The position numbers and the translations under genes were made by a program. Positions 6,071 to 61,009 of a DNA stretch of 64,000 nucleotides are shown in pieces. The notes under the pieces are model-generated. The model saw nothing but the letters and a program-made list of their open reading frames with translations, was not told the DNA's origin and made no database searches. The stretch comes from a virus (lineage: Duplodnaviria; Heunggongvirae; Uroviricota; Caudoviricetes): IMG/VR virus record IMGVR_UViG_2713896908_000007; one strand, written 5' to 3'. Position 1 is the first letter of the stretch, and each line of letters begins with the position of its first letter.

Positions 6071-6730
6071 ACTTGCCGGGTACGTCTCCGGCGAGGGCTT
6101 CCACCTCCGTATGCTTTTCGGCGCACCGCGCCCTGGCTGCAATTCGGTAACAGGGGATGCATAACCCTGGCTTCCAGCGTGATTAGCGCTTTCAGCATGA
6201 CGGGATATACCCGTAAATTCGTGGAACTGTACCCAAAGTGCTGTTAAGCACCGCTGTTACGCTGAAAAGAAGACGCAACAGGAAAGGACGCTGACCAACA
6301 GATGGCCCCTTCTCGTTCATCTGGTTAATCACACCAGCGCCCTTACCTGTTGTGCCTCCCCGTTCCCTAATACACAGACGGGGACACTCTGCGGTCGATT
6401 TTTTGACGGGGGACGACTCATACCCCGTGGCGTCTGGCTTCTTAGGCCGCAGCCATCATCAGATCATCGTTTGCATTTACTTTAATGGTCAGTTTCTAAA
6501 CCGCCGCAAAGTCGCTAACCATGACGAAAACCCTGAAAAAACGCCCACCCGAAGATGGGCAAACAGGATGTAAGCTCGTTACGCATTTCGGTATTGCCAC
6601 TTAGGCGTATGGTCAACCTGGCAACTCGGCGTCATGAGGGGGAAGGAGTCACTACCCCGCCATACTTGCCGCCGCGCCTGTCGCGGCTAACAGCTAAATC
6701 GCTCTATAAATCACGATTCATTGAAACCAT

Positions 6731-47889: not shown

Positions 47890-47910
47890 GAGAAGTTACT
47901 TTGCATACCA
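47890..47910 (+). promoter_or_regulatory. candidate late promoter upstream of lydA
   Basis: GAGAAGTTACTTTGCATACCA; the AGTTACTTTGCATA core recurs upstream of other late genes. Confidence 0.35.
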
Positions 47911-47939
47911 TTACCTCCTGACAACGTAGGAGGGAACTT

Positions 47940-49299: not shown

Positions 49300-51219
49300 A
49301 TGGAACAGTTCAATATCAATAAAGGGGTGACGATCAAACCTGGGCTTGACGTGCTTCCCCCGCCAGTGACTGATGATGAATATCGCGCATTAATGGCCGG
49401 TGAGGACCGCTATCTGATGACGGAATCCAACACCCTGGAGGAAATCGAGGCTACGTTCTTCTATGACAAGCCGATCCACTGGTGTGCTACGGATTTACTG
49501 GAGGCGATTAGTTCTACTCGTTTGCAGTTACACCGGACCATGCAGGCATTTGTCCGGGCATTGAACCAGAAGCTGAATGGTACCGGAATCTCTGCGGGGA
49601 GTGATAAAACGGGGGATGTGGCCCAGAGCGGCGCGCGCGCGATCGGCGGCGCTGAAATTGGTCGGGCACGTAACGTTAACGGGCTGCCGGTCCTGCCAGC
49701 CATTATTCCGCTCAGTGATGGTCAGACTATCAGCATTTTGTTTCATAGCCCGACAGCGGAAAACCGGATCACCAATAGCGATACGCTGGTTGCTTTCCAG
49801 TTCTTACTGAATAAAAAAGACGTTACTCACACCGTTGCTCCGATGAGTGGACGTGATATGACGCTGGCGCAGGTCACCATGAAACTTGCCAACCTTGCAG
49901 AGAAAAACTCGGCAAAATTCCAGCGTGCGCAGAAGAAGAAAAAAGCCCTGGTTGATGAAATAACCCAACTACAGGCTGACAGTGACCAGAAAGAGGATGC
50001 CATGAGCGACCTCGCGGATCAGGTGGCAGCGGTAGAAGGCCAGAAGGCAGATCTGGAGCAGAAAATTAACGCGGTTGCTTCGGAAGCGGATTCTCTTTAT
50101 CAAGAAAATGAGCGTTTGCAGGCGGAGATTGAGCAGCTCAATCGCACTGGTGGGCGCGATACCATTGCTCCAACGGGGATGACTGGTGGGCACTCTCGCG
50201 CGCTGACGGATCGCCTTGCCAGTATCAAAAATCGTATGCATATGGACGGGGAAGCGACGCTCAGTAATGGTGCATCAATGAAGCAATTCATTGGGGACGG
50301 CAAAGGGTATGTCCAGTTAACCGATCCGGATGGCAGCGTGTACATGATCAAGGCTAAATCCATACAGGGTGTGGACATGGCAGATGCGATCGGCAAGCTG
50401 TTTAAAGCCTATAAAGCGGGTAACGTATCGGAATATCTGGTCCAACCAGAAGAGCCTAAACCGGAAAACGTCGAACCTGAACCAGCGGAAGATACCGGTA
50501 GCTCTTCGCCTGAACCAGAAGTCTCTGTAGGTGCATATCGATATGCCCTGCAAATGCGTCCGGCGGCCCCAGGCGCGATACCTGAAGGTAACAAAGCAAT
50601 TCTGCCGTGCCCTGATGAAGGTGACCCGTATTATGAATATGCGCGCTACGGCATTGTTACTTACGATACCCCGCTTTCTGATCAGCAAATGAGTGAGTAC
50701 GACCTGAAGTTATTGCCTCGCGAGGATTCTTTCGACTTCCTGGCGAAGACACTTACTAATGGTCCGTTTGGCAAATATGCACAAAAAGCTCTGGAGCTGG
50801 CCACCAGCTCACCAGACGAGTTCCGCGTAATGCTGAAAACTCAGTTTCAAAAAACTTTCCCCAATATTGCGTTTCCGGGGGGCGCAGGCACCGAGAAAAT
50901 GGTGCAGAGCATGATCAATGCATTGCAGGCCGAAGTCGGTGAGATTACTCAACCAGAATCGGCCCCGGAACAGCATGATGAAAAGGTTAGCGAAGCAGAT
51001 GCAGAGGCTAATAAAGCCATTGAATATCTCAATAACGTGATGGATATGCAAAGCACTGACATGGCGGAGATCCGCAACGCCAGGGGCAATGTCAGGGAAG
51101 CGATTGCTGCCCTTCAGGCTGCCGGACGTTTTGATGAAAACGAAGAGCTGGTTAACGGCGCAGCTCGCCACCTGGCTGATCTGCTGGTAGCAATCCAGAA
51201 AGCGGGAGGAGCGGCATGA
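49300..51219 (+). CDS. darA: antirestriction capsid protein DarA
   Basis: 639 aa, same length and operon position as remembered P1 DarA. Confidence 0.65.
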   Translation: MEQFNINKGVTIKPGLDVLPPPVTDDEYRALMAGEDRYLMTESNTLEEIEATFFYDKPIHWCATDLLEAISSTRLQLHRTMQAFVRALNQKLNGTGISAGSDKTGDVAQSGARAIGGAEIGRARNVNGLPVLPAIIPLSDGQTISILFHSPTAENRITNSDTLVAFQFLLNKKDVTHTVAPMSGRDMTLAQVTMKLANLAEKNSAKFQRAQKKKKALVDEITQLQADSDQKEDAMSDLADQVAAVEGQKADLEQKINAVASEADSLYQENERLQAEIEQLNRTGGRDTIAPTGMTGGHSRALTDRLASIKNRMHMDGEATLSNGASMKQFIGDGKGYVQLTDPDGSVYMIKAKSIQGVDMADAIGKLFKAYKAGNVSEYLVQPEEPKPENVEPEPAEDTGSSSPEPEVSVGAYRYALQMRPAAPGAIPEGNKAILPCPDEGDPYYEYARYGIVTYDTPLSDQQMSEYDLKLLPREDSFDFLAKTLTNGPFGKYAQKALELATSSPDEFRVMLKTQFQKTFPNIAFPGGAGTEKMVQSMINALQAEVGEITQPESAPEQHDEKVSEADAEANKAIEYLNNVMDMQSTDMAEIRNARGNVREAIAALQAAGRFDENEELVNGAARHLADLLVAIQKAGGAA

Positions 51220-51602
51220 CACTATCAGCTATTGAGTTAATGGACCTCAGCGATAAGTTGGATGCTCTGATGTCCAAAGCTGCTACCGCGAGTGGCATGG
51301 AGTTGCTGGATATCAGCGATGAAATTGACCAGATCATGCAACAGATGGGGTACGGCGCGTCCGGCGGCGGTAGTGGCGAGGAAAAACAACCTTCAGTACA
51401 TGATGGTGTGCCAAAACTGGTTGCTGATTTCCTGGCTGATAAATTCGTCGATCAGAGCACCGATGCATTTATCGGCACCTTGCAGGACTTGAGTCAATAT
51501 GTTGGCACATACATCGACCTGGACCAGGTTAAACAGCACACGGCGGCATGGATAGCCGCCAACATTAAAGAGGCTTCAGGTGTTCGCAGCAACTCTACAT
51601 GA
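51216..51602 (+). CDS. DdrA-like small acidic protein
   Basis: 128-aa ORF coupled to darA. Confidence 0.45.
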   Translation: MTLSAIELMDLSDKLDALMSKAATASGMELLDISDEIDQIMQQMGYGASGGGSGEEKQPSVHDGVPKLVADFLADKFVDQSTDAFIGTLQDLSQYVGTYIDLDQVKQHTAAWIAANIKEASGVRSNST

Positions 51603-51663
51603 GCTGTAGTTTTCGAAGATTCTCACAAGTTCATTTCGCGTAGGTATTTATTTAACCATTAAA

Positions 51664-51701
51664 GCCGAATGCGGCGGGCACACCACATTCGGCAATTTTT
51701 T
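51664..51701. terminator. rho-independent terminator between convergent ddrA-like gene and gldA
   Basis: GCCGAATG ... CATTCGGC hairpin followed by AATTTTTT. Confidence 0.65.
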
Positions 51702-51735
51702 GAAAACTATCAATGAATTAAATAATCAGAGGGGC

Positions 51736-52839
51736 TTATTCCCACTCTTGCAGGAAACGCTGACCGTACTGGTCGGCTACCAGCAGTGCAGCATAAACCT
51801 GATCTGGCGTTGCGCCGCCAGGCATGTTGTGGATGGTTTCACCTTCTGCACATGCCGCTTCTGCGACAATCCGCATTTTCGCCGGGATATCTTCTTTAAT
51901 ATCCAGTTGTGCCAGGGTAATTGGCAGGCCGACAGCATGGCACAGCGCAGCTACGGTTTCGATTTCTTCAACTGGTGCGTTTTCCAGAACCAGTTGCGTC
52001 AGCGTACCGAATGCCACTTTCTCACCGTGATAATAGTGATGCGCATCCGGAATGGCCGTCAGGCCATTGTGCACCGCGTGCGCCGCCGCCAGGCCGCCGC
52101 TTTCAAAGCCCACGCCGCTCAAATAGGTGTTAGCTTCAATCACACGTTCCAGCGCCGGAGTCACCACATGCTGTTCAGCGGCAAGCATCGCTTTTTCGCC
52201 TTCTTCCAGCAGGGTGTTGTAGCACAGTTCAGCCAGAGCCAGTGCTGCCTGAGTACATTTACCGCCCGCCATCGTGGTTGCGCCGCTGCGGGAACAGGCA
52301 CGTGCTTCAAACCAGGTTGCCAACGCATCGCCAATACCCGCCGCTAACAGACGTGCAGGTGCGCCAGCAACAATTTTGGTATCCACAATGACGCGTTCCG
52401 GGTTGTTTGGCAGCATCAGATAACGTTCAAACTCACCATCATCGGTGTAGATAACGGAAAGGGCGCTGCAAGGTGCGTCGGTTGAGGCAATGGTTGGGGC
52501 AACTGCAACAGGAACGCCCATAAAGTGTGCCAGTGCTTTGGCTGTATCGAGGGTTTTACCTCCGCCGATTCCCAGAATTGCGCTACACTGAGCATTCTCT
52601 GCAATACCCCGCAGACGATCGATTTCATTTTGCGAACATTCACCGCCGAACGGGGCAATTTCTACCTCTATTCCAGCATCTTTAAAACTTTTCTCAATAT
52701 TAGTTTGAGCAAAACCTAACACAAATTTGTCACCTACCACCAACCAATGTTCTGCCAGCGGTTTCAGGTATTCACCCAGGCGATTAATGACATCTGCGCC
52801 TTGGATGTATTTACCCGGTGATTGAATGATGCGGTCCAT
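51736..52839 (-). CDS. gldA: glycerol dehydrogenase (iron-containing ADH family), host-type metabolic gene
   Basis: 367 aa; first ~190 residues match remembered E. coli GldA almost exactly, C-terminal half more diverged; own AAGGAG RBS. Confidence 0.9.
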
Positions 52840-52986
52840 AATTGCTCCTTTAGAGATGAGTTATGCTAAATGTTTTGTTATTCCCGGATGACCTTCTGTA
52901 TATATCTTAAGTCAACATTATAAGTTGACGCCAATATTCCGTAGAAGAGATGTTACTTCGCGAGCAGTATGACTCCATAGGTTTCT

Positions 52987-53005
52987 GAGACGTTACTTTG
53001 CATAT
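52987..53005 (+). promoter_or_regulatory. candidate late promoter
   Basis: GAGACGTTACTTTGCATAT, sharing the GTTACTTTGCATA core with the lydA upstream motif. Confidence 0.3.
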
Positions 53006-53142
53006 GATATTGCTGAGGCAAATACATTCAATGCCGCATTTTTGTGAGATTTTAAGCCAATCTACATCACCATTAGGTAAGAGTATCTTTTTTTGGTGGT
53101 GATGGCGCAATGTATCAGTGGACAGCATAAGGTGTAACAGGG

Positions 53143-54831
53143 ATGTGTTTGAACGATCATACAGTTATGGCCACCAGCAGCGGCTACATCGGTGTGGCAC
53201 CGTATACCCGCTTGCTATTACATCAGGCATCCGGCATCAAAGATATTATTCACCTGATCAGGCTGCTTTCCCGTACAGATCCCCAGGATGAACAGCTTGT
53301 TCAAGTGCTTGCGCATTTTGTCCGAATGCCTGTTGCCGACGTGAAAAAATGGTGCCGATTATTCGGTATCAGCAATTCGTTACTTCGCGGATTGTTAAAT
53401 CACGCATCCTCCCTTGGGCGCGACGGATTTGATGAGATAGCGCAGGCGATAAAAAACGGAGATATGCCACCAGCTATTGACTGGTTTTCCATTCGCCCAA
53501 CCAGGGTGAAAGCATTCCTTAGTGCGGCGCAATCAGCATCACCATTGGCAGAAATGGTTCAGAGGTTGTCGCTCATATTCACAGATCATACCGCGTTCGG
53601 TGATCTGGCTCTGGACGAGATGAAAGAAGCCTCCATTCAGTGGGCCGCTCAACAAAATGAGGTTAACTCAGACTTCTTGCCAGCATTCAGGAAGGCCGTT
53701 AGTAAAGCGGATGATGCCCGTGGAATTCTGAAGGCATTTAAGGCATTGCAAAGTCGGGTTAATAAACATGTCGGTGATATCGATGGGGTAACGGCGGAAG
53801 GCAGGGATATCCTTAAAGAGCACGGCATAACGCCAGAGTTTATTGATGAGATCAGGACGGATATGCAGCGTGAGGTCGTATCGTCCCTGCAAATTGTAGC
53901 CAGAGCGTTGGCGGATGCTAATCCGAAGAGTGCGGCCATTGTTAACCGGGTTATTGGTGATATTGAAGCATCGGAGGGCATGGGGGCGCTGAAACTCTTC
54001 CTTTCGCGAGCGTTTAATCCTAACGGCAATATTCTCCCTGGCATTATTGGTGAGGCTAAAAGGTATGTCAGTGAAGAAGAACTTGAGCAGCTTGACCAAC
54101 TACTTAAGCGATTCTCATATAACCCGCAGACACGCTGGCAAATGAATCAGCGAAGTATGGGTTCGGTCCACGAGAAAGTGTTATCTGCCATGAACAGTGC
54201 GATCGCAAACTCATCCGTATCTGAAGAAAAAGCTCTTGAGTGGGCCGACTCTTTTATCACGGAAGAAGTGGAAGAAGCCCGCGCTGGACAGAATGGTGGG
54301 ATAGACCTGCGCAAGGAACTTGCTGATATTTATCGCCTGACCGGCGGTAAAATTTCGACCCTATCAAAGATAATTCACCACCAGGGAAGGGCATATGCAA
54401 ATCTTAATGGTATTGTTGCTGTCAATTTGAACGATGAAAATGCAAGCGCACTGTGGCACGAGCTTGGTCATCATCTTGAGTACAGTAACCCTGGTCTGTT
54501 AGAGAAAGCCAGGTCATTCCTGAAGGCCAATGTTGAAGGGGATAAGCCATCTTTCGTTAATATCGGTGGGCGTGGTAAACCTGAATGGTGCTTCAGATCT
54601 CGATTGAGTAATATTTATATGGCGAAGGTATACCCGCCAGCCTCAGTGAGTAACTCCGGGAAAATTCGGCAGAAAGCACCGACTATTTCCAAAACGTCAG
54701 CAACGGAAGTATTCTCTATGGCTCTTCAGTTGTATCATGACAAAGAGGCCGCTGCCGCATCACTGATGAATGGTGACGGATTGCTGGAACTGTTATTAGG
54801 TGTGGCAAAGGAGCTAAATAATGCAGATTAA
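53143..54831 (+). CDS. large protein with C-terminal HExxH zincin-like motif
   Basis: 562 aa; WHELGHHLEYSNPG near the C-terminus; coupled to a small acidic ORF; occupies the region where P1 has ddrB. Confidence 0.45.
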   Translation: MCLNDHTVMATSSGYIGVAPYTRLLLHQASGIKDIIHLIRLLSRTDPQDEQLVQVLAHFVRMPVADVKKWCRLFGISNSLLRGLLNHASSLGRDGFDEIAQAIKNGDMPPAIDWFSIRPTRVKAFLSAAQSASPLAEMVQRLSLIFTDHTAFGDLALDEMKEASIQWAAQQNEVNSDFLPAFRKAVSKADDARGILKAFKALQSRVNKHVGDIDGVTAEGRDILKEHGITPEFIDEIRTDMQREVVSSLQIVARALADANPKSAAIVNRVIGDIEASEGMGALKLFLSRAFNPNGNILPGIIGEAKRYVSEEELEQLDQLLKRFSYNPQTRWQMNQRSMGSVHEKVLSAMNSAIANSSVSEEKALEWADSFITEEVEEARAGQNGGIDLRKELADIYRLTGGKISTLSKIIHHQGRAYANLNGIVAVNLNDENASALWHELGHHLEYSNPGLLEKARSFLKANVEGDKPSFVNIGGRGKPEWCFRSRLSNIYMAKVYPPASVSNSGKIRQKAPTISKTSATEVFSMALQLYHDKEAAAASLMNGDGLLELLLGVAKELNNAD

Positions 54832-55126
54832 AATCGCAGCGCCATTAGGCGGAGATGCAATTATCGAATTTGATGATAATGAAGAAGTTTCCGGGCGTTT
54901 AAGCATTATCTCCGGTGACATTACCGAGGACATGATCGCTGAAGCCATAGCTGGAGCAAATCCCAATAGCTATATGGGATTCGTTAACTCCCTTGATGCT
55001 CCCGCAAGCGATGTTCTCCGAACGCTGCATCTTTACGCTGGCTGGTTTGTTGATTGGCCAGCAGTAGAGGGTGGCGATGAGGACGACGATGATTTCGGTG
55101 ATAATATTAATCAGATTATATTTTAA
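54821..55126 (+). CDS. small highly acidic protein
   Basis: 101 aa, Asp/Glu-rich with EGGDEDDDDFGD; start overlaps the end of the HExxH protein gene. Confidence 0.4.
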   Translation: MQIKIAAPLGGDAIIEFDDNEEVSGRLSIISGDITEDMIAEAIAGANPNSYMGFVNSLDAPASDVLRTLHLYAGWFVDWPAVEGGDEDDDDFGDNINQIIF

Positions 55127-55285
55127 CCCATATGAGATATAATCGTTCTAATGGCATAAAGTTAGATTGTTCTTATATTCGACTTTGTGCCATCATTAGG
55201 ACTAATCATTTAGGGGTTCTTTTAGGTAGAAATTTAGCAATACATGTTTAGTATGGCAATATTTTCTAAAGGAGTTAGGTAAAAA

Positions 55286-56164
55286 GTGAAAAGAATTATT
55301 CCTGATAAAAAATGGTTAAAAGAAGAAAGCAGTAAGCGACAAGTGCCATCAGAATGTCCCTATGCAAATTCATATCGATGTCCTAGATATCACGAAAGTG
55401 TTATTTTGTTCTCACAGATGCAAATGATTGATGGCATGTCATATAATAAAGAGAAGGAGTTGAAACAGTTCTGGGAGAGAACCGACCTCTCTTCTTTATG
55501 TAATGGAGAAACCCCGTTGGTCTCAAAAAATGATAAAGGCGGGATTTTCTCTATAGATAATTTCTGTCCAGAAATATCGTTTAGATATTTAGGTTACTAT
55601 GCAGACTATATGCTGAGATACATTGATGAAGATGCTCACACTATAGGGTATGGCATAGCTAAAAGAGATCAGAAAGAAAATGATTGGAAGTATGATTGGT
55701 CCGAGGTCAATGCTGTTTTCTATGAGGATTGTTACCTCTTTGAGAGAGTTAAACAATTCAATAAAGAACTTCATGATAGTTTCTTTAAAAGACTACATCC
55801 GAATATTGTAATGCAAATAAGTAGAATGGATAAGTGTTTGGACTCAAATGACCCAACCGGTGTTTTGCATGCGGCATCTAATATTCTAGAAACAATGGCT
55901 AAAGAAATATTAGATGATCCAAATGTATTAAATAAATCGTTTGGCTCTTTTTTTGAGAAGTTTAAAAAAGAGTCAAAGTTGCCGTTAGGGTTTATTAATG
56001 CAGTTAAAGATATTTATGACTTACGTAATAAAATACCTACTGCTGGTCATGGGGGGGTGGGGATGCCTGGGTTATCTTTATCTGATGCCATAATGATTGC
56101 TGCATCAACAAAGGCTATTGTAGAGATTGAGTACAGAAACATTGATGTGGCTGCTATTGATTGA
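55286..56164 (+). CDS. AT-rich orphan protein, function unknown
   Basis: 292-aa ORF with AAGGAG RBS after an AT-rich promoter region; Cys-rich N-terminus; no domain recognised. Confidence 0.45.
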   Translation: MKRIIPDKKWLKEESSKRQVPSECPYANSYRCPRYHESVILFSQMQMIDGMSYNKEKELKQFWERTDLSSLCNGETPLVSKNDKGGIFSIDNFCPEISFRYLGYYADYMLRYIDEDAHTIGYGIAKRDQKENDWKYDWSEVNAVFYEDCYLFERVKQFNKELHDSFFKRLHPNIVMQISRMDKCLDSNDPTGVLHAASNILETMAKEILDDPNVLNKSFGSFFEKFKKESKLPLGFINAVKDIYDLRNKIPTAGHGGVGMPGLSLSDAIMIAASTKAIVEIEYRNIDVAAID

Positions 56165-56228
56165 GCTAATATAGCGAGGTTCCTTTTTGTATCGTTCGAA
56201 TTATCCCCGCCTGTCGGCGGGGTATAAC

Positions 56229-59734: not shown

Positions 59735-61009
59735 TATATTGCCCTCCAGCTACCTTACCTAATGTCTGTTGGTATATTGGCTTTGATAACATTTTCGTCC
59801 GTGTATTCATTTATATACTCATTAGTTTCAATGTATTATATAGAACATGAAGCGTGCCTATAAATATCGATTCTATCCAACTCCCGAACAAACCGAGCTA
59901 TTAGCCCGGACTTTTGGGTGTGTGCGTTTTGTCTATAACAGCCTCCTTCGCTGGCGTACCGATGCATACTACGCACGCCATGAGAGGGTCGGCTATGCAC
60001 AAGCCAGCGCCAAATTAACGGCACTGAAAAAAGAACCAGAATTCGCTTGGCTGAATGACGTTTCCTGCGTCCCCCTCCAGCAGTCTCTGCGCCACCAACA
60101 AACGGCTTTTGCTAACTTTTTCGCCGGGCGTGCTGCATACCCAGTTTTTAAGAGCAAGCGGCATAAACAGGCCGCAGAACTAACTGCCAGCGCATTTAAA
60201 TACCGTGACGGCAAGCTGTACATGGCAAAGAGCAAAGAGCCGTTAGATGTTCGCTGGAGCCGTCCGTTGCCGTCTGCTCCATCCACTGTCACTATCACCA
60301 GGGATGCTGCCGGACGATATTTTGTATCCTGTCTCTGCGAGTTTGAGCCTGTATCACTGCCGATCACCGTTTCCACGGTCGGCATTGATATTGGTTTAAA
60401 AGATTTGTTCGTCACCGATACCGGTTTCAAAACTGGCAATCCTCGACACAACGCTAAATACGCGAAGCGATTAGCAGTGTTACAGCGCAGATTGAGCAAG
60501 AAACAAAAAGGCTCAAAGAACCGCGCCAAAGCACGTTTAAAGGTTGCCCGCCTCCACGCGAGAATAGTCGATTGTCGGATGGATAACCTGCATAAGTTGT
60601 CCCGCAAACTGATTAACGAAAACCAAGTTGTTTGCGTCGAATCCCTTAAAGTGAAAAACATGATCCGTAACCCGAAGCTGTCTAAAGCAATAGCTGACGC
60701 AGGCTGGAGCGAACTTGTACGCCAACTCCAGTACAAAGGAGAATGGGGTGGACGTAGCATTGTCGCTATCGACCAGTATTTCCCTTCTTCCAAACGTTGC
60801 AGCAGTTGCGGCTTCACCATGCAAAAAATGCCTCTTAATATTCGTAAATGGCACTGCCCGGAATGTGGCGCAGAGCATGATCGTGATATTAACGCGGCCC
60901 GTAATATAAAAGCTGCCGGGCTGGCAGTGTTAGCCCTTGGAGAGTCTGTAATTCCTAAGCCGCTTCATGTGGTTTAGGTCGGACTCTGTGAATTGGGAAT
61001 GTTTGCCGT
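59735..61009 (+). mobile_element. solo TnpB element (IS200/IS605 family, no tnpA), filling the gap between two structural genes
   Basis: Single tnpB ORF plus about 110 bp left and 30 bp right flanks; element ends not defined. Confidence 0.55.
59847..60977 (+). CDS. tnpB: TnpB, RuvC-like RNA-guided nuclease
   Basis: Hallmark N-terminus MKRAYKYRFYPTPEQ; RuvC motifs (GIDIGLKD, ...E..., HDRDINAARNI); zinc finger CSSCG...CPECG. Confidence 0.85.
   Translation: MKRAYKYRFYPTPEQTELLARTFGCVRFVYNSLLRWRTDAYYARHERVGYAQASAKLTALKKEPEFAWLNDVSCVPLQQSLRHQQTAFANFFAGRAAYPVFKSKRHKQAAELTASAFKYRDGKLYMAKSKEPLDVRWSRPLPSAPSTVTITRDAAGRYFVSCLCEFEPVSLPITVSTVGIDIGLKDLFVTDTGFKTGNPRHNAKYAKRLAVLQRRLSKKQKGSKNRAKARLKVARLHARIVDCRMDNLHKLSRKLINENQVVCVESLKVKNMIRNPKLSKAIADAGWSELVRQLQYKGEWGGRSIVAIDQYFPSSKRCSSCGFTMQKMPLNIRKWHCPECGAEHDRDINAARNIKAAGLAVLALGESVIPKPLHVV

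Follow-up and report, generated by a model that had tools for sequence, protein, structure and literature searches.

A ParB-less ddrB allele and its coupled neighbor hxr at the distal end of the darA operon in a P1-like phage-plasmid of Escherichia albertii

INTRODUCTION

Phage P1 protects its injected DNA in cis from type I restriction by means of the Dar system (PMC12707154, PMC12810830). One of the six Dar head proteins is DdrB (PMC9024508, PMC12810830, PMC12707154), a protein that is made late and processed to ∼76 kDa. It has been detected in P1 virions with a peptide coverage of 59.5% and is listed as aiding the addition of DarB to the capsid (PMC9024508). Here, we describe a gene pair in a 64,000-nucleotide (nt) stretch of DNA, hereafter the window, from the IMG/VR virus record IMGVR_UViG_2713896908_000007. 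By sequence comparison, this pair is almost certainly ddrB followed by hxr, the distal end of a P1-type darA operon in an Escherichia albertii phage-plasmid. An earlier note, made from the sequence of the window, had tentatively suggested for the same genes an anti-defense or packaged-effector role, with a metallopeptidase and a DNA-mimic-like acidic partner.

The HExxH motif in the C-terminal part of DdrB has been suspected, in the P1 genome annotation as well as in PMC3650047, to mark a zincin. Iyer et al. assigned the region to the metallopeptidase (MPTase) domains of "polyvalent proteins," for which they proposed, in the case of DdrB, autoproteolysis to a packaged form of 76 kDa (PMC5512222). 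By their definition, the domain has a core fold made up of a three-stranded sheet with one N-terminal and two C-terminal helices; the HExxH motif is carried by one helix and, beyond a variable insert, a Glu by another (PMC5512222). As for hxr, we found no functional data in the literature, where the primary Dar paper is known to us only through later papers.

Taken as a whole, the locus is, in our judgment, probably best explained as the known ddrB-hxr pair, comprising a working ddrB allele without its ParB domain, a peptidase of the HExxH type, Hxr as the partner of that peptidase, and expression by transcriptional read-through. The individual parts of this explanation differ in strength and are therefore weighed separately below.

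RESULTS AND DISCUSSION

Identity of the gene pair

The region clearly belongs to a P1-like phage-plasmid. It shows 100% identity to plasmid pEA16-1_1 of E. albertii (NZ_CP117651.1) and can be aligned colinearly to phage P1 as well as to hundreds of P1-like phage-plasmids. Within the dar operon, the order is lydA-lydB-hdf-darA-ddrA-[gldA cassette]-ddrB-hxr, again colinear with P1; upstream of the pair, the hdf product carries a DarA_N domain and the darA product both DarA_N and DarA_C. The two open reading frames (ORFs) described in the earlier note, one for a 562-amino-acid (aa) HExxH protein and one for a 101-aa acidic protein, are both present (Table 1). Their assignment to a variable segment outside the dar operon needs to be corrected, however: in P1, the darA operon ends with ddrB and hxr, and it is the DNA on either side of them that varies. 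That is, non-P1 DNA flanks the pair both upstream, in the form of the gldA cassette, and downstream, in the form of a segment at 55128-56221.

The 562-aa ORF maps onto P1 DdrB in two pieces. Its residues 1-12 correspond to P1 DdrB 1-12 and its residues 11-562 to P1 DdrB 444-995, the latter with 95.7% identity over 552 residues (blastp). At the nucleotide level, window positions 53185-55127 align with ddrB-hxr of P1, P7, and relatives at 96-97% identity (megablast), and the stretch 53123-53179 is 81% identical to the P1 segment that spans the ddrA stop and the ddrB start (L001 4640-4696), with the ATG in register. The match of the protein to PHROG 2299 has an E value of 0 and covers only positions 445-995 of the 995 in this profile. 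This mapping of the residues, combined with the presence of the gene's own ribosome-binding site and start codon, identifies the ORF as ddrB with an in-frame deletion of ∼433 codons (P1 residues ∼13-445) and as neither a new gene nor a 5′-truncated fragment. The ddrB-ParB domain (PF18763), located at residues 36-167 of P1 DdrB, lies inside the deleted part, and a Pfam search with the 562-aa protein gave no match to it; the antisense ORF iddB is also removed by the deletion. By descent, as its alignments indicate, the protein is a DdrB allele, yet one without the full architecture. Packaging into the head and a contribution to antirestriction are known for full-length P1 DdrB only (PMC9024508).

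In summary of this comparison with P1 DdrB (P1_gp022, YP_006491.1; PHROG 2299), the window allele shares the operon position, a homologous ribosome-binding site, the first 12 codons, the HELGH motif, and the overlap with hxr, whereas it lacks ∼433 residues, PF18763, and iddB and is separated from ddrA by the 1.5-kb gldA cassette. We also considered that the insertion of gldA might have truncated ddrB. This is ruled out, since the cassette is a clean insertion 5′ of the intact start and the short ddrB is present in 21 plasmid records that have no gldA. With so clear a homology to ddrB (95.7% identity; E = 0 for PHROG 2299), the novelty implied for the pair falls away, and the candidate "new anti-defense pair" is the long-annotated ddrB-hxr of P1 rather than a discovery.

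TABLE 1 Features of the ddrB-hxr locus and of the operon upstream (window coordinates)
Feature	Position	Strand	Evidence or remark
LPdar, late promoter of the dar operon (lydA-lydB-hdf-darA-ddrA-ddrB-hxr)	47893..47911	+	AAGTTACTTTGCATACCAT, exact match to annotated P1 LPdar (-22 box, 4-nt spacer, -10)
ddrA, last codons replaced by cassette insertion (128 aa vs 121 aa in P1)	51216..51602	+	PHROG 1855 (DdrA-like), E = 1.3e-57
Foreign cassette, 1548 bp, between ddrA and ddrB	51575..53122		P1 homology ends and resumes at L001 4640
gldA, 367 aa, intact, antisense	51736..52839	-	Fe-ADH in Pfam
Late-promoter-like motif ACGTTACTTTGCATATGAT = ACGTTACTT-TGCA-TATGAT, 134 nt 5′ of ddrB ATG	52990..53008	+	One mismatch to AAGTNAYTTNNNNTANNNT, in the -22 box
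ddrB Shine-Dalgarno sequence AAGGTG, 8 nt 5′ of ATG; authentic ddrB ribosome-binding site	53129..53134	+	Alignment to P1
ddrB short allele, 562 aa, 61.8 kDa	53143..54831	+	P1 DdrB 1-12 fused in frame to ∼446-995
HELGH codons, residues 439-443, predicted zinc-binding/catalytic motif	54457..54471	+	[W/Y]HExGHx[IL]E invariant in 7 sequences at 26-50% identity
Glu522 codon, in invariant [ST]E[VI]xSM[AG]LQ helix (predicted)	54706..54708	+	Invariant alignment column
hxr Shine-Dalgarno sequence AAGGAG, inside ddrB 3′ end, 7 nt 5′ of ATG	54808..54813	+	Identical in P1; kept as AAGGAGCT in Klebsiella
hxr, 101 aa, 10.9 kDa, isoelectric point (pI) 4.05	54821..55126	+	PHROG 2292, E = 2.6e-56; 11-nt overlap with ddrB stop

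Two proposed modules and natural rearrangements of DdrB

The deletion junction lies in a Gly/Ser-rich stretch, GGLFESVSGGSYNG, and the same place recurs as a boundary in other elements. One example is given by two viral contigs (L044 and L049), in which DdrB residues 1-445 are 80-92% identical to P1 while residues 446-995 reach only 22-53% and Hxr 48%; the breakpoint of these mosaics falls within P1 residues ∼435-448 and coincides with the junction in the window. Another example comes from Klebsiella P1-like contigs, where a 558-aa DdrB homologue (P0034-P0036) with 35% identity over its full length occupies the same operon position and begins where the window's deletion ends. A single linker is thus deletion junction, mosaic breakpoint, and start of a natural short form. 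The Klebsiella protein resembles the window allele in its length class, the gene order hdf-darA-ddrA-X-hxr-ssb-lyz, the start point at the linker, and the invariant HExxH block. It differs in sequence, at the 35% identity just given, as does the Hxr homologue behind it (44% identity, E = 2e-23), and in its N terminus, which is unrelated to P1 DdrB 1-12, so that the short form probably originated independently in this lineage.

Three other natural in-frame forms were found. Two are internal deletions, joining DdrB 1-176 to 522-995 (P0021, 642 aa) and DdrB 1-206 to 655-995 (P0030, 537 aa), respectively. The third fuses DarA 1-347 to DdrB 645-995 (P0028, 693 aa) and was seen on 74 contigs. All four independent deletion or fusion forms, the window's included, retain at least the last 341 residues of DdrB. 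Going by these forms, the dar region is prone to deletions, with the C-terminal ∼340 residues of DdrB always kept. In our reading, DdrB has two modules, of which the C-terminal one would be constant and do the core work, with the ParB module as a facultative addition.

Working allele or remnant

The junction of the short ddrB was found in 36 of the 477 plasmid records that match the segment. Fifteen of these records are from E. albertii and carry the gldA cassette, while the other 21, from E. coli, E. fergusonii, and E. albertii, do not have gldA and thereby show the deletion to be independent of the cassette. When nine copies were examined, the 562-codon frame from the same start was intact in eight, all of them distinct from one another. 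Pairwise ratios of nonsynonymous to synonymous substitution rates (dN/dS) among these eight copies range from 0.10 to 0.23, with dS up to 0.13, and their 128 variable sites are distributed 31/19/78 over the three codon positions. By this pattern of substitutions, the short allele is under purifying selection, and we consider it likely to be functional.

Several observations weigh against a working allele. RefSeq annotates a short ddrB as a pseudogene, "incomplete; missing N-terminus" (Prokaryotic Genome Annotation Pipeline [PGAP]; L009 473-2131, NZ_AP024522.1, LDO00_RS24525), and skipped locus tags in three other RefSeq-derived records (L002, L003, and L004) suggest the same call there. The one broken copy of the nine, from E. 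fergusonii (L015 2317-4003, NZ_CP070875.1), is annotated as three ORFs, which could be real decay or an assembly error. In addition, ddrB and hxr are nonessential for plaque formation by P1 (PMC10695390), so a loss of function would be tolerated. Lastly, the low dN/dS could in part reflect polymorphism imported by recombination from full-length alleles, as opposed to selection on the short form itself.

The view implied by RefSeq is that of a dead remnant whose frame is open only because the deletion is recent. Speaking for it are the PGAP label, the dispensability of ddrB for P1 plaques, the split copy in E. fergusonii, and the deletion-prone nature of the dar region, but we regard it as distinctly improbable. 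The label "missing N-terminus" is factually wrong: the pseudogene feature in NZ_AP024522.1 starts 42 nt 3′ of the true ATG, and the authentic start and the first 12 codons are present. Nor does a remnant readily account for eight distinct alleles that, at dS values of up to 0.13, all keep the 562-codon frame and show both low dN/dS and an excess of third-position changes. The junction also sits exactly on the boundary between linker and module, and the same short architecture is found in the 35%-identical Klebsiella lineage.

The HExxH domain

The motif on which the earlier note had focused is there, though not at the end of the protein as described: WHELGHHLEYSNPG occupies residues 438-451 of the 562 aa, ∼110 residues before the C terminus. 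Searching with tblastn, we found remote relatives of residues ∼326-539 in Vibrio phages (∼145-160 kb) and in Xanthomonas phage Rb1; two of the inspected Vibrio phages with a DdrB-like domain are classed as Ackermannviridae. In an alignment of seven sequences with 26-50% identity, the Vibrio and Xanthomonas phage proteins included, the invariant positions are R416, A417, H439, E440, G442, H443, E446, E481, Y492, Y497, E522, S525, M526, and L528. The HExxH motif is therefore retained in homologues down to 26% identity. Three of the invariant glutamates, E446, E481, and E522, lie downstream of HExxH; while sequence cannot tell which of them is the zinc ligand, E522 is the best candidate for the third one.

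The sole match in the Protein Data Bank (PDB) to a profile of the domain was the catalytic domain of anthrax lethal factor (2L0R), with an E value of 0.44 that is not significant. In this match, both HExGH and the E522 helix align colinearly with lethal factor, E522 being placed against the NEAEFFAEAF helix. We take this helix to be the carrier of the third zinc ligand of that enzyme. The comparison with lethal factor, a gluzincin, speaks to consistency in motif geometry and provides no evidence of family membership.

Another parallel is offered by the zincin-like MPTases of polyvalent proteins (Iyer et al. 2017, PMC5512222), with which the window DdrB shares the HExxH motif, a variable insert, a conserved Glu segment, and the C-terminal location in a large phage head-associated protein, DdrB itself being the example used by the authors. 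Unlike a textbook member, the window DdrB matches no Pfam family at threshold, and with its ParB effector domain gone, the short DdrB is no longer "polyvalent."

A number of results argue against too firm an assignment. No peptidase model of Pfam or NCBIfam reached threshold for the window protein, the Klebsiella homologues, or the remote phage homologues; the best matches, both below threshold, were DUF4932 (E = 0.0014) and Peptidase_M10 (E = 0.12). Sequence and profile searches of the PDB, using full-length DdrB-short, the Xanthomonas homologue, and the catalytic-domain profile, returned nothing significant. An AlphaFold2 model of DdrB-short, built on a 5-sequence alignment, has a mean predicted local distance difference test (pLDDT) score of 51.6, and the score is below 50 for residues 399-529, which include HExxH. 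In a separate word-index search, a profile of the DdrB-short and Klebsiella proteins retrieved no homologues beyond P1-like elements, and neither DdrB-short nor Hxr reached the threshold of any family in Pfam, NCBIfam, or PADLOC. Given that no curated model reaches threshold and that the structure model is unreliable, the peptidase assignment is well motivated but not demonstrated. Based on the conservation of the motif and the published prediction, we lean slightly toward the HExxH module being a metallopeptidase. In this respect, the metallopeptidase with an anti-defense or packaged role suggested in the earlier note pointed in the right functional direction, there being a conserved zincin-type motif in a Dar head protein, while the implied novelty did not survive.

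In Xanthomonas phage Rb1 (L020 1-5564), the gene for the DdrB-type HExxH protein has that of an "internal head protein" on one side and that of a giant SNF2-type ATPase on the other. Though the phage is unrelated, such a layout is reminiscent of a packaged system of the Dar kind.

The acidic protein Hxr

The second gene of the pair differs little from its P1 counterpart (P1_gp021, YP_006490.1; PHROG 2292): the 11-nt overlap and the Shine-Dalgarno sequence are the same, residues 1-80 are 97.5% identical, and only the acidic tail differs in length and sequence. The window protein has 21 Asp and Glu residues versus 3 Lys and Arg residues, and much of the negative charge is in the C-terminal tail. 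In an exhaustive HMMER search, the only relatives to emerge were a small family of acidic proteins, 96-101 aa in length and 35-45% identical, and a single tandem duplicate of 184 aa. The family is conserved at P8, G53, V55, N56, L66, R67, W75, W79, and P80, after which the acidic tail follows with variable length. The tandem duplicate is located 3′ of a full-length DdrB on a metagenomic P1-like contig (L024 5001-5555; P0062), and Hxr may, as this duplication hints, act as a dimer.

The translational coupling of the two genes was borne out by the overlap and by the position of the AAGGAG sequence before the hxr start, and it extends well beyond the window. Wherever the context could be seen (Klebsiella, the metagenomic contigs L016 to L019, and L024), the start of hxr overlaps the end of a preceding DdrB-like ORF by 11-17 nt. 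Likewise, a search of viral contigs with the Hxr profile led to 29 loci, and in all 29 the gene is preceded by an ORF that is DdrB-like, encodes HExGH, and overlaps by 11 or 14 nt; this pattern was also seen in L016, L018, L019, and L024. Long and short DdrB proteins are accompanied by hxr alike, and on plasmids, hxr and the peptidase-encoding segment occur together (483 and 481 records, respectively). In mosaic elements, Hxr diverges along with the C-terminal module of DdrB and, in L024, with its last 175 residues only.

This conserved coupling makes a stoichiometric partner of the C-terminal module the most economical inference for Hxr, a role that we favor by a little. Two points count against it: the covariation of Hxr with the C-terminal module could be explained by physical adjacency alone, and the study of the P1 virion proteome does not name Hxr anywhere in its main text, the table of detected proteins included (PMC9024508). 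A working analogy is provided by Ulx, a 17-kDa protein that is encoded near DarB and "aids DarB localization" in P1 (PMC9024508), much as Hxr would serve DdrB alone among the large packaged Dar proteins. The likeness is no more than an analogy, and Ulx was detected in virions whereas Hxr goes unmentioned.

A different function, that of an Xre-like transcriptional repressor, is attributed to Hxr in the P1 genome record, where residues 23-80 are noted to be 28% identical to a repressor of the Xre type; many other records have since taken over this label. However, none of nine Hxr members matched any Pfam family at E ≤ 1, helix-turn-helix families included, which leaves the label of an "Xre homologue" unsupported. 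The low pI (4.05) and the presence of just 3 basic residues also fit poorly with a DNA-binding repressor, and in all lineages hxr is translationally coupled to a late structural gene. We therefore hold a repressor function to be extremely unlikely, for all the wide propagation of this label.

Searching the PDB with the Hxr profile likewise gave no match, and a structure model of Hxr derived from six near-identical sequences had a pLDDT of 39.5. These results also bear on the anti-defense pair of the earlier note, in which a previously unrecognized metallopeptidase would be joined by an acidic DNA mimic. The conservation of the HExxH motif, the high acidity of Hxr, which is reminiscent of known DNA mimics, and the location in an antirestriction operon would all suit such a pair. 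Against it stands the identification of the genes as the known ddrB-hxr, as does the result that neither Hxr nor its relatives match Pfam (at E ≤ 1) or the PDB. In addition, the charge of Hxr resides largely in a C-terminal tail of variable length. Known DNA mimics present their charge on a rigid surface array. The only feature that Hxr has in common with mimics of the Ocr/ArdA type is its net charge, and nothing beyond this net charge backs the description as DNA-mimic-like. A new anti-defense pair is thus very unlikely in our view.

We also looked into possible relatives of Hxr and rejected them. Small ORFs that follow the DdrB-like domain in Vibrio phages VAP7, D509, and YC are not acidic and scored an hhalign probability of ∼1%, and DdrA, the other small acidic Dar protein, scored 0.1%. 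Mimicry of the C-terminal tip of the single-stranded DNA-binding protein SSB (DDDIPF) by the Hxr tail was discarded as well, judged from sequence only, as the terminal residues of the tail are not conserved (F, Y, or N).

Possible roles of the pair

In our preferred explanation, the HExxH...Glu site would be that of a metallopeptidase of the gluzincin kind, with either DdrB itself or a neighboring head protein as the substrate to be processed. Translational coupling would supply Hxr in a fixed proportion to DdrB, and Hxr would bind specifically to the C-terminal module as its chaperone, inhibitor, or assembly factor and would not be a repressor.

Alternatively, rather than serving in autoprocessing, the peptidase might be injected as an effector and, once delivered, cleave a target in the host, with Hxr serving as inhibitor or immunity partner in the producing cell. 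Effector action is among the possible roles of polyvalent-protein MPTases (PMC5512222), all natural deletion forms retain the C-terminal module, and a dedicated, coupled small partner would be typical of toxic enzymes. The lack of any mention of Hxr in the virion proteome (PMC9024508) would also fit a partner that is left behind. On the other hand, the only role listed for DdrB is to help DarB into the capsid, and we consider an effector unlikely. The prohead protease Pro, which is similar to gp21 of T4, could account for Dar processing, which would argue neither for nor against an effector role of the peptidase.

Returning to the processing peptidase with its partner Hxr, a more general proposal would be that DdrB consists of two modules on a Gly/Ser linker, of which the HExxH module forms the invariant unit together with Hxr, a specific chaperone or inhibitor and not a repressor, while ParB would be an optional effector, with independent loss or exchange in two lineages or more; the "pseudogene" calls of RefSeq would then conceal a working minimal form. 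We put this forward tentatively, as one possibility that may well prove wrong. What the natural alleles do illustrate is that a clean cut at the linker can rid DdrB of its ParB half, with selection continuing to act on hxr and the HExxH half. Such ParB-less alleles bear on the question of which part of DdrB is packaged and works, which Iyer et al. state has not been shown (PMC5512222), and the short allele offers a ready-made minimal DdrB construct.

Expression of the pair and the gldA cassette

Fifteen records of P1-like plasmids from E. albertii share the cassette between ddrA and ddrB. Its gldA gene is 89% identical to the chromosomal gldA of E. coli and 91.6% identical to the closest copy, which is carried by a nonphage E. 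coli plasmid rich in insertion sequences (IS). Neither target duplications nor terminal repeats are visible at the cassette ends. On its left side, P1 homology stops at 51574, 8 nt 5′ of the P1 ddrA stop codon, so that the cassette changes the C terminus of DdrA.

A late-promoter-like motif upstream of the pair, already pointed out in the earlier note, was indeed found within the right arm of the cassette (Table 1). Late promoters of P1, which depend on Lpa, follow the pattern of a 9-bp -22 box, a 4-nt spacer, and a TANNNT -10 element; the window contains four perfect matches to this pattern, LPdar and LPlyz among them. The upstream motif agrees with the element's own LPdar at 16 of 19 positions, and ∼0.006 hits would be expected by chance in a 300-nt upstream zone on one strand. 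The motif is identical in all three further gldA-type copies compared (L004, the window's own record, as well as L010 and L011). Up to ∼53015, the right arm is common to the nonphage E. coli plasmid, the motif included. The plasmid copy (L008 ∼6250-6270, ACGTGACTTTTGAATATGAT), however, differs at three motif positions, all of them further from the late-promoter consensus. Going from the plasmid copy to the window, the changes are G>T, a 1-nt deletion, and A>C, each toward P1 LPdar, which could reflect promoter improvement after capture or chance.

Since the cassette contains no terminator-like site on the + strand, ddrB-hxr could be expressed by read-through from LPdar, from the putative motif at 52990, or from both. 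We would expect transcripts that start at LPdar to read through the antisense gldA cassette into the pair, with the motif as a possible second start.

Neighboring DNA

Downstream of the pair lie an isaA-like gene, ssb, lyz, pro, and prt, and the window closes with the first part of darB. The segment 55128-56221 replaces the isaB/IS1 region of P1 and is low in GC content (35% versus 47% for the window); other P1-like plasmids have ompC/ompD or other cargo at this site. It contains a 292-aa ORF (55286..56164, + strand) with a Cys-rich N terminus, for which neither PHROG nor PADLOC gave a match and whose only family match, Abi_C, is below threshold (E = 0.06). This ORF may be an unrecognized defense or moron gene. 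Further downstream, a gene for a 376-aa TnpB (IS605 OrfB; HTH_OrfB_IS605 and Cas12f1-like TNB domains) is found at 59847-60977 on the + strand, between pro and prt, two genes that adjoin in P1.

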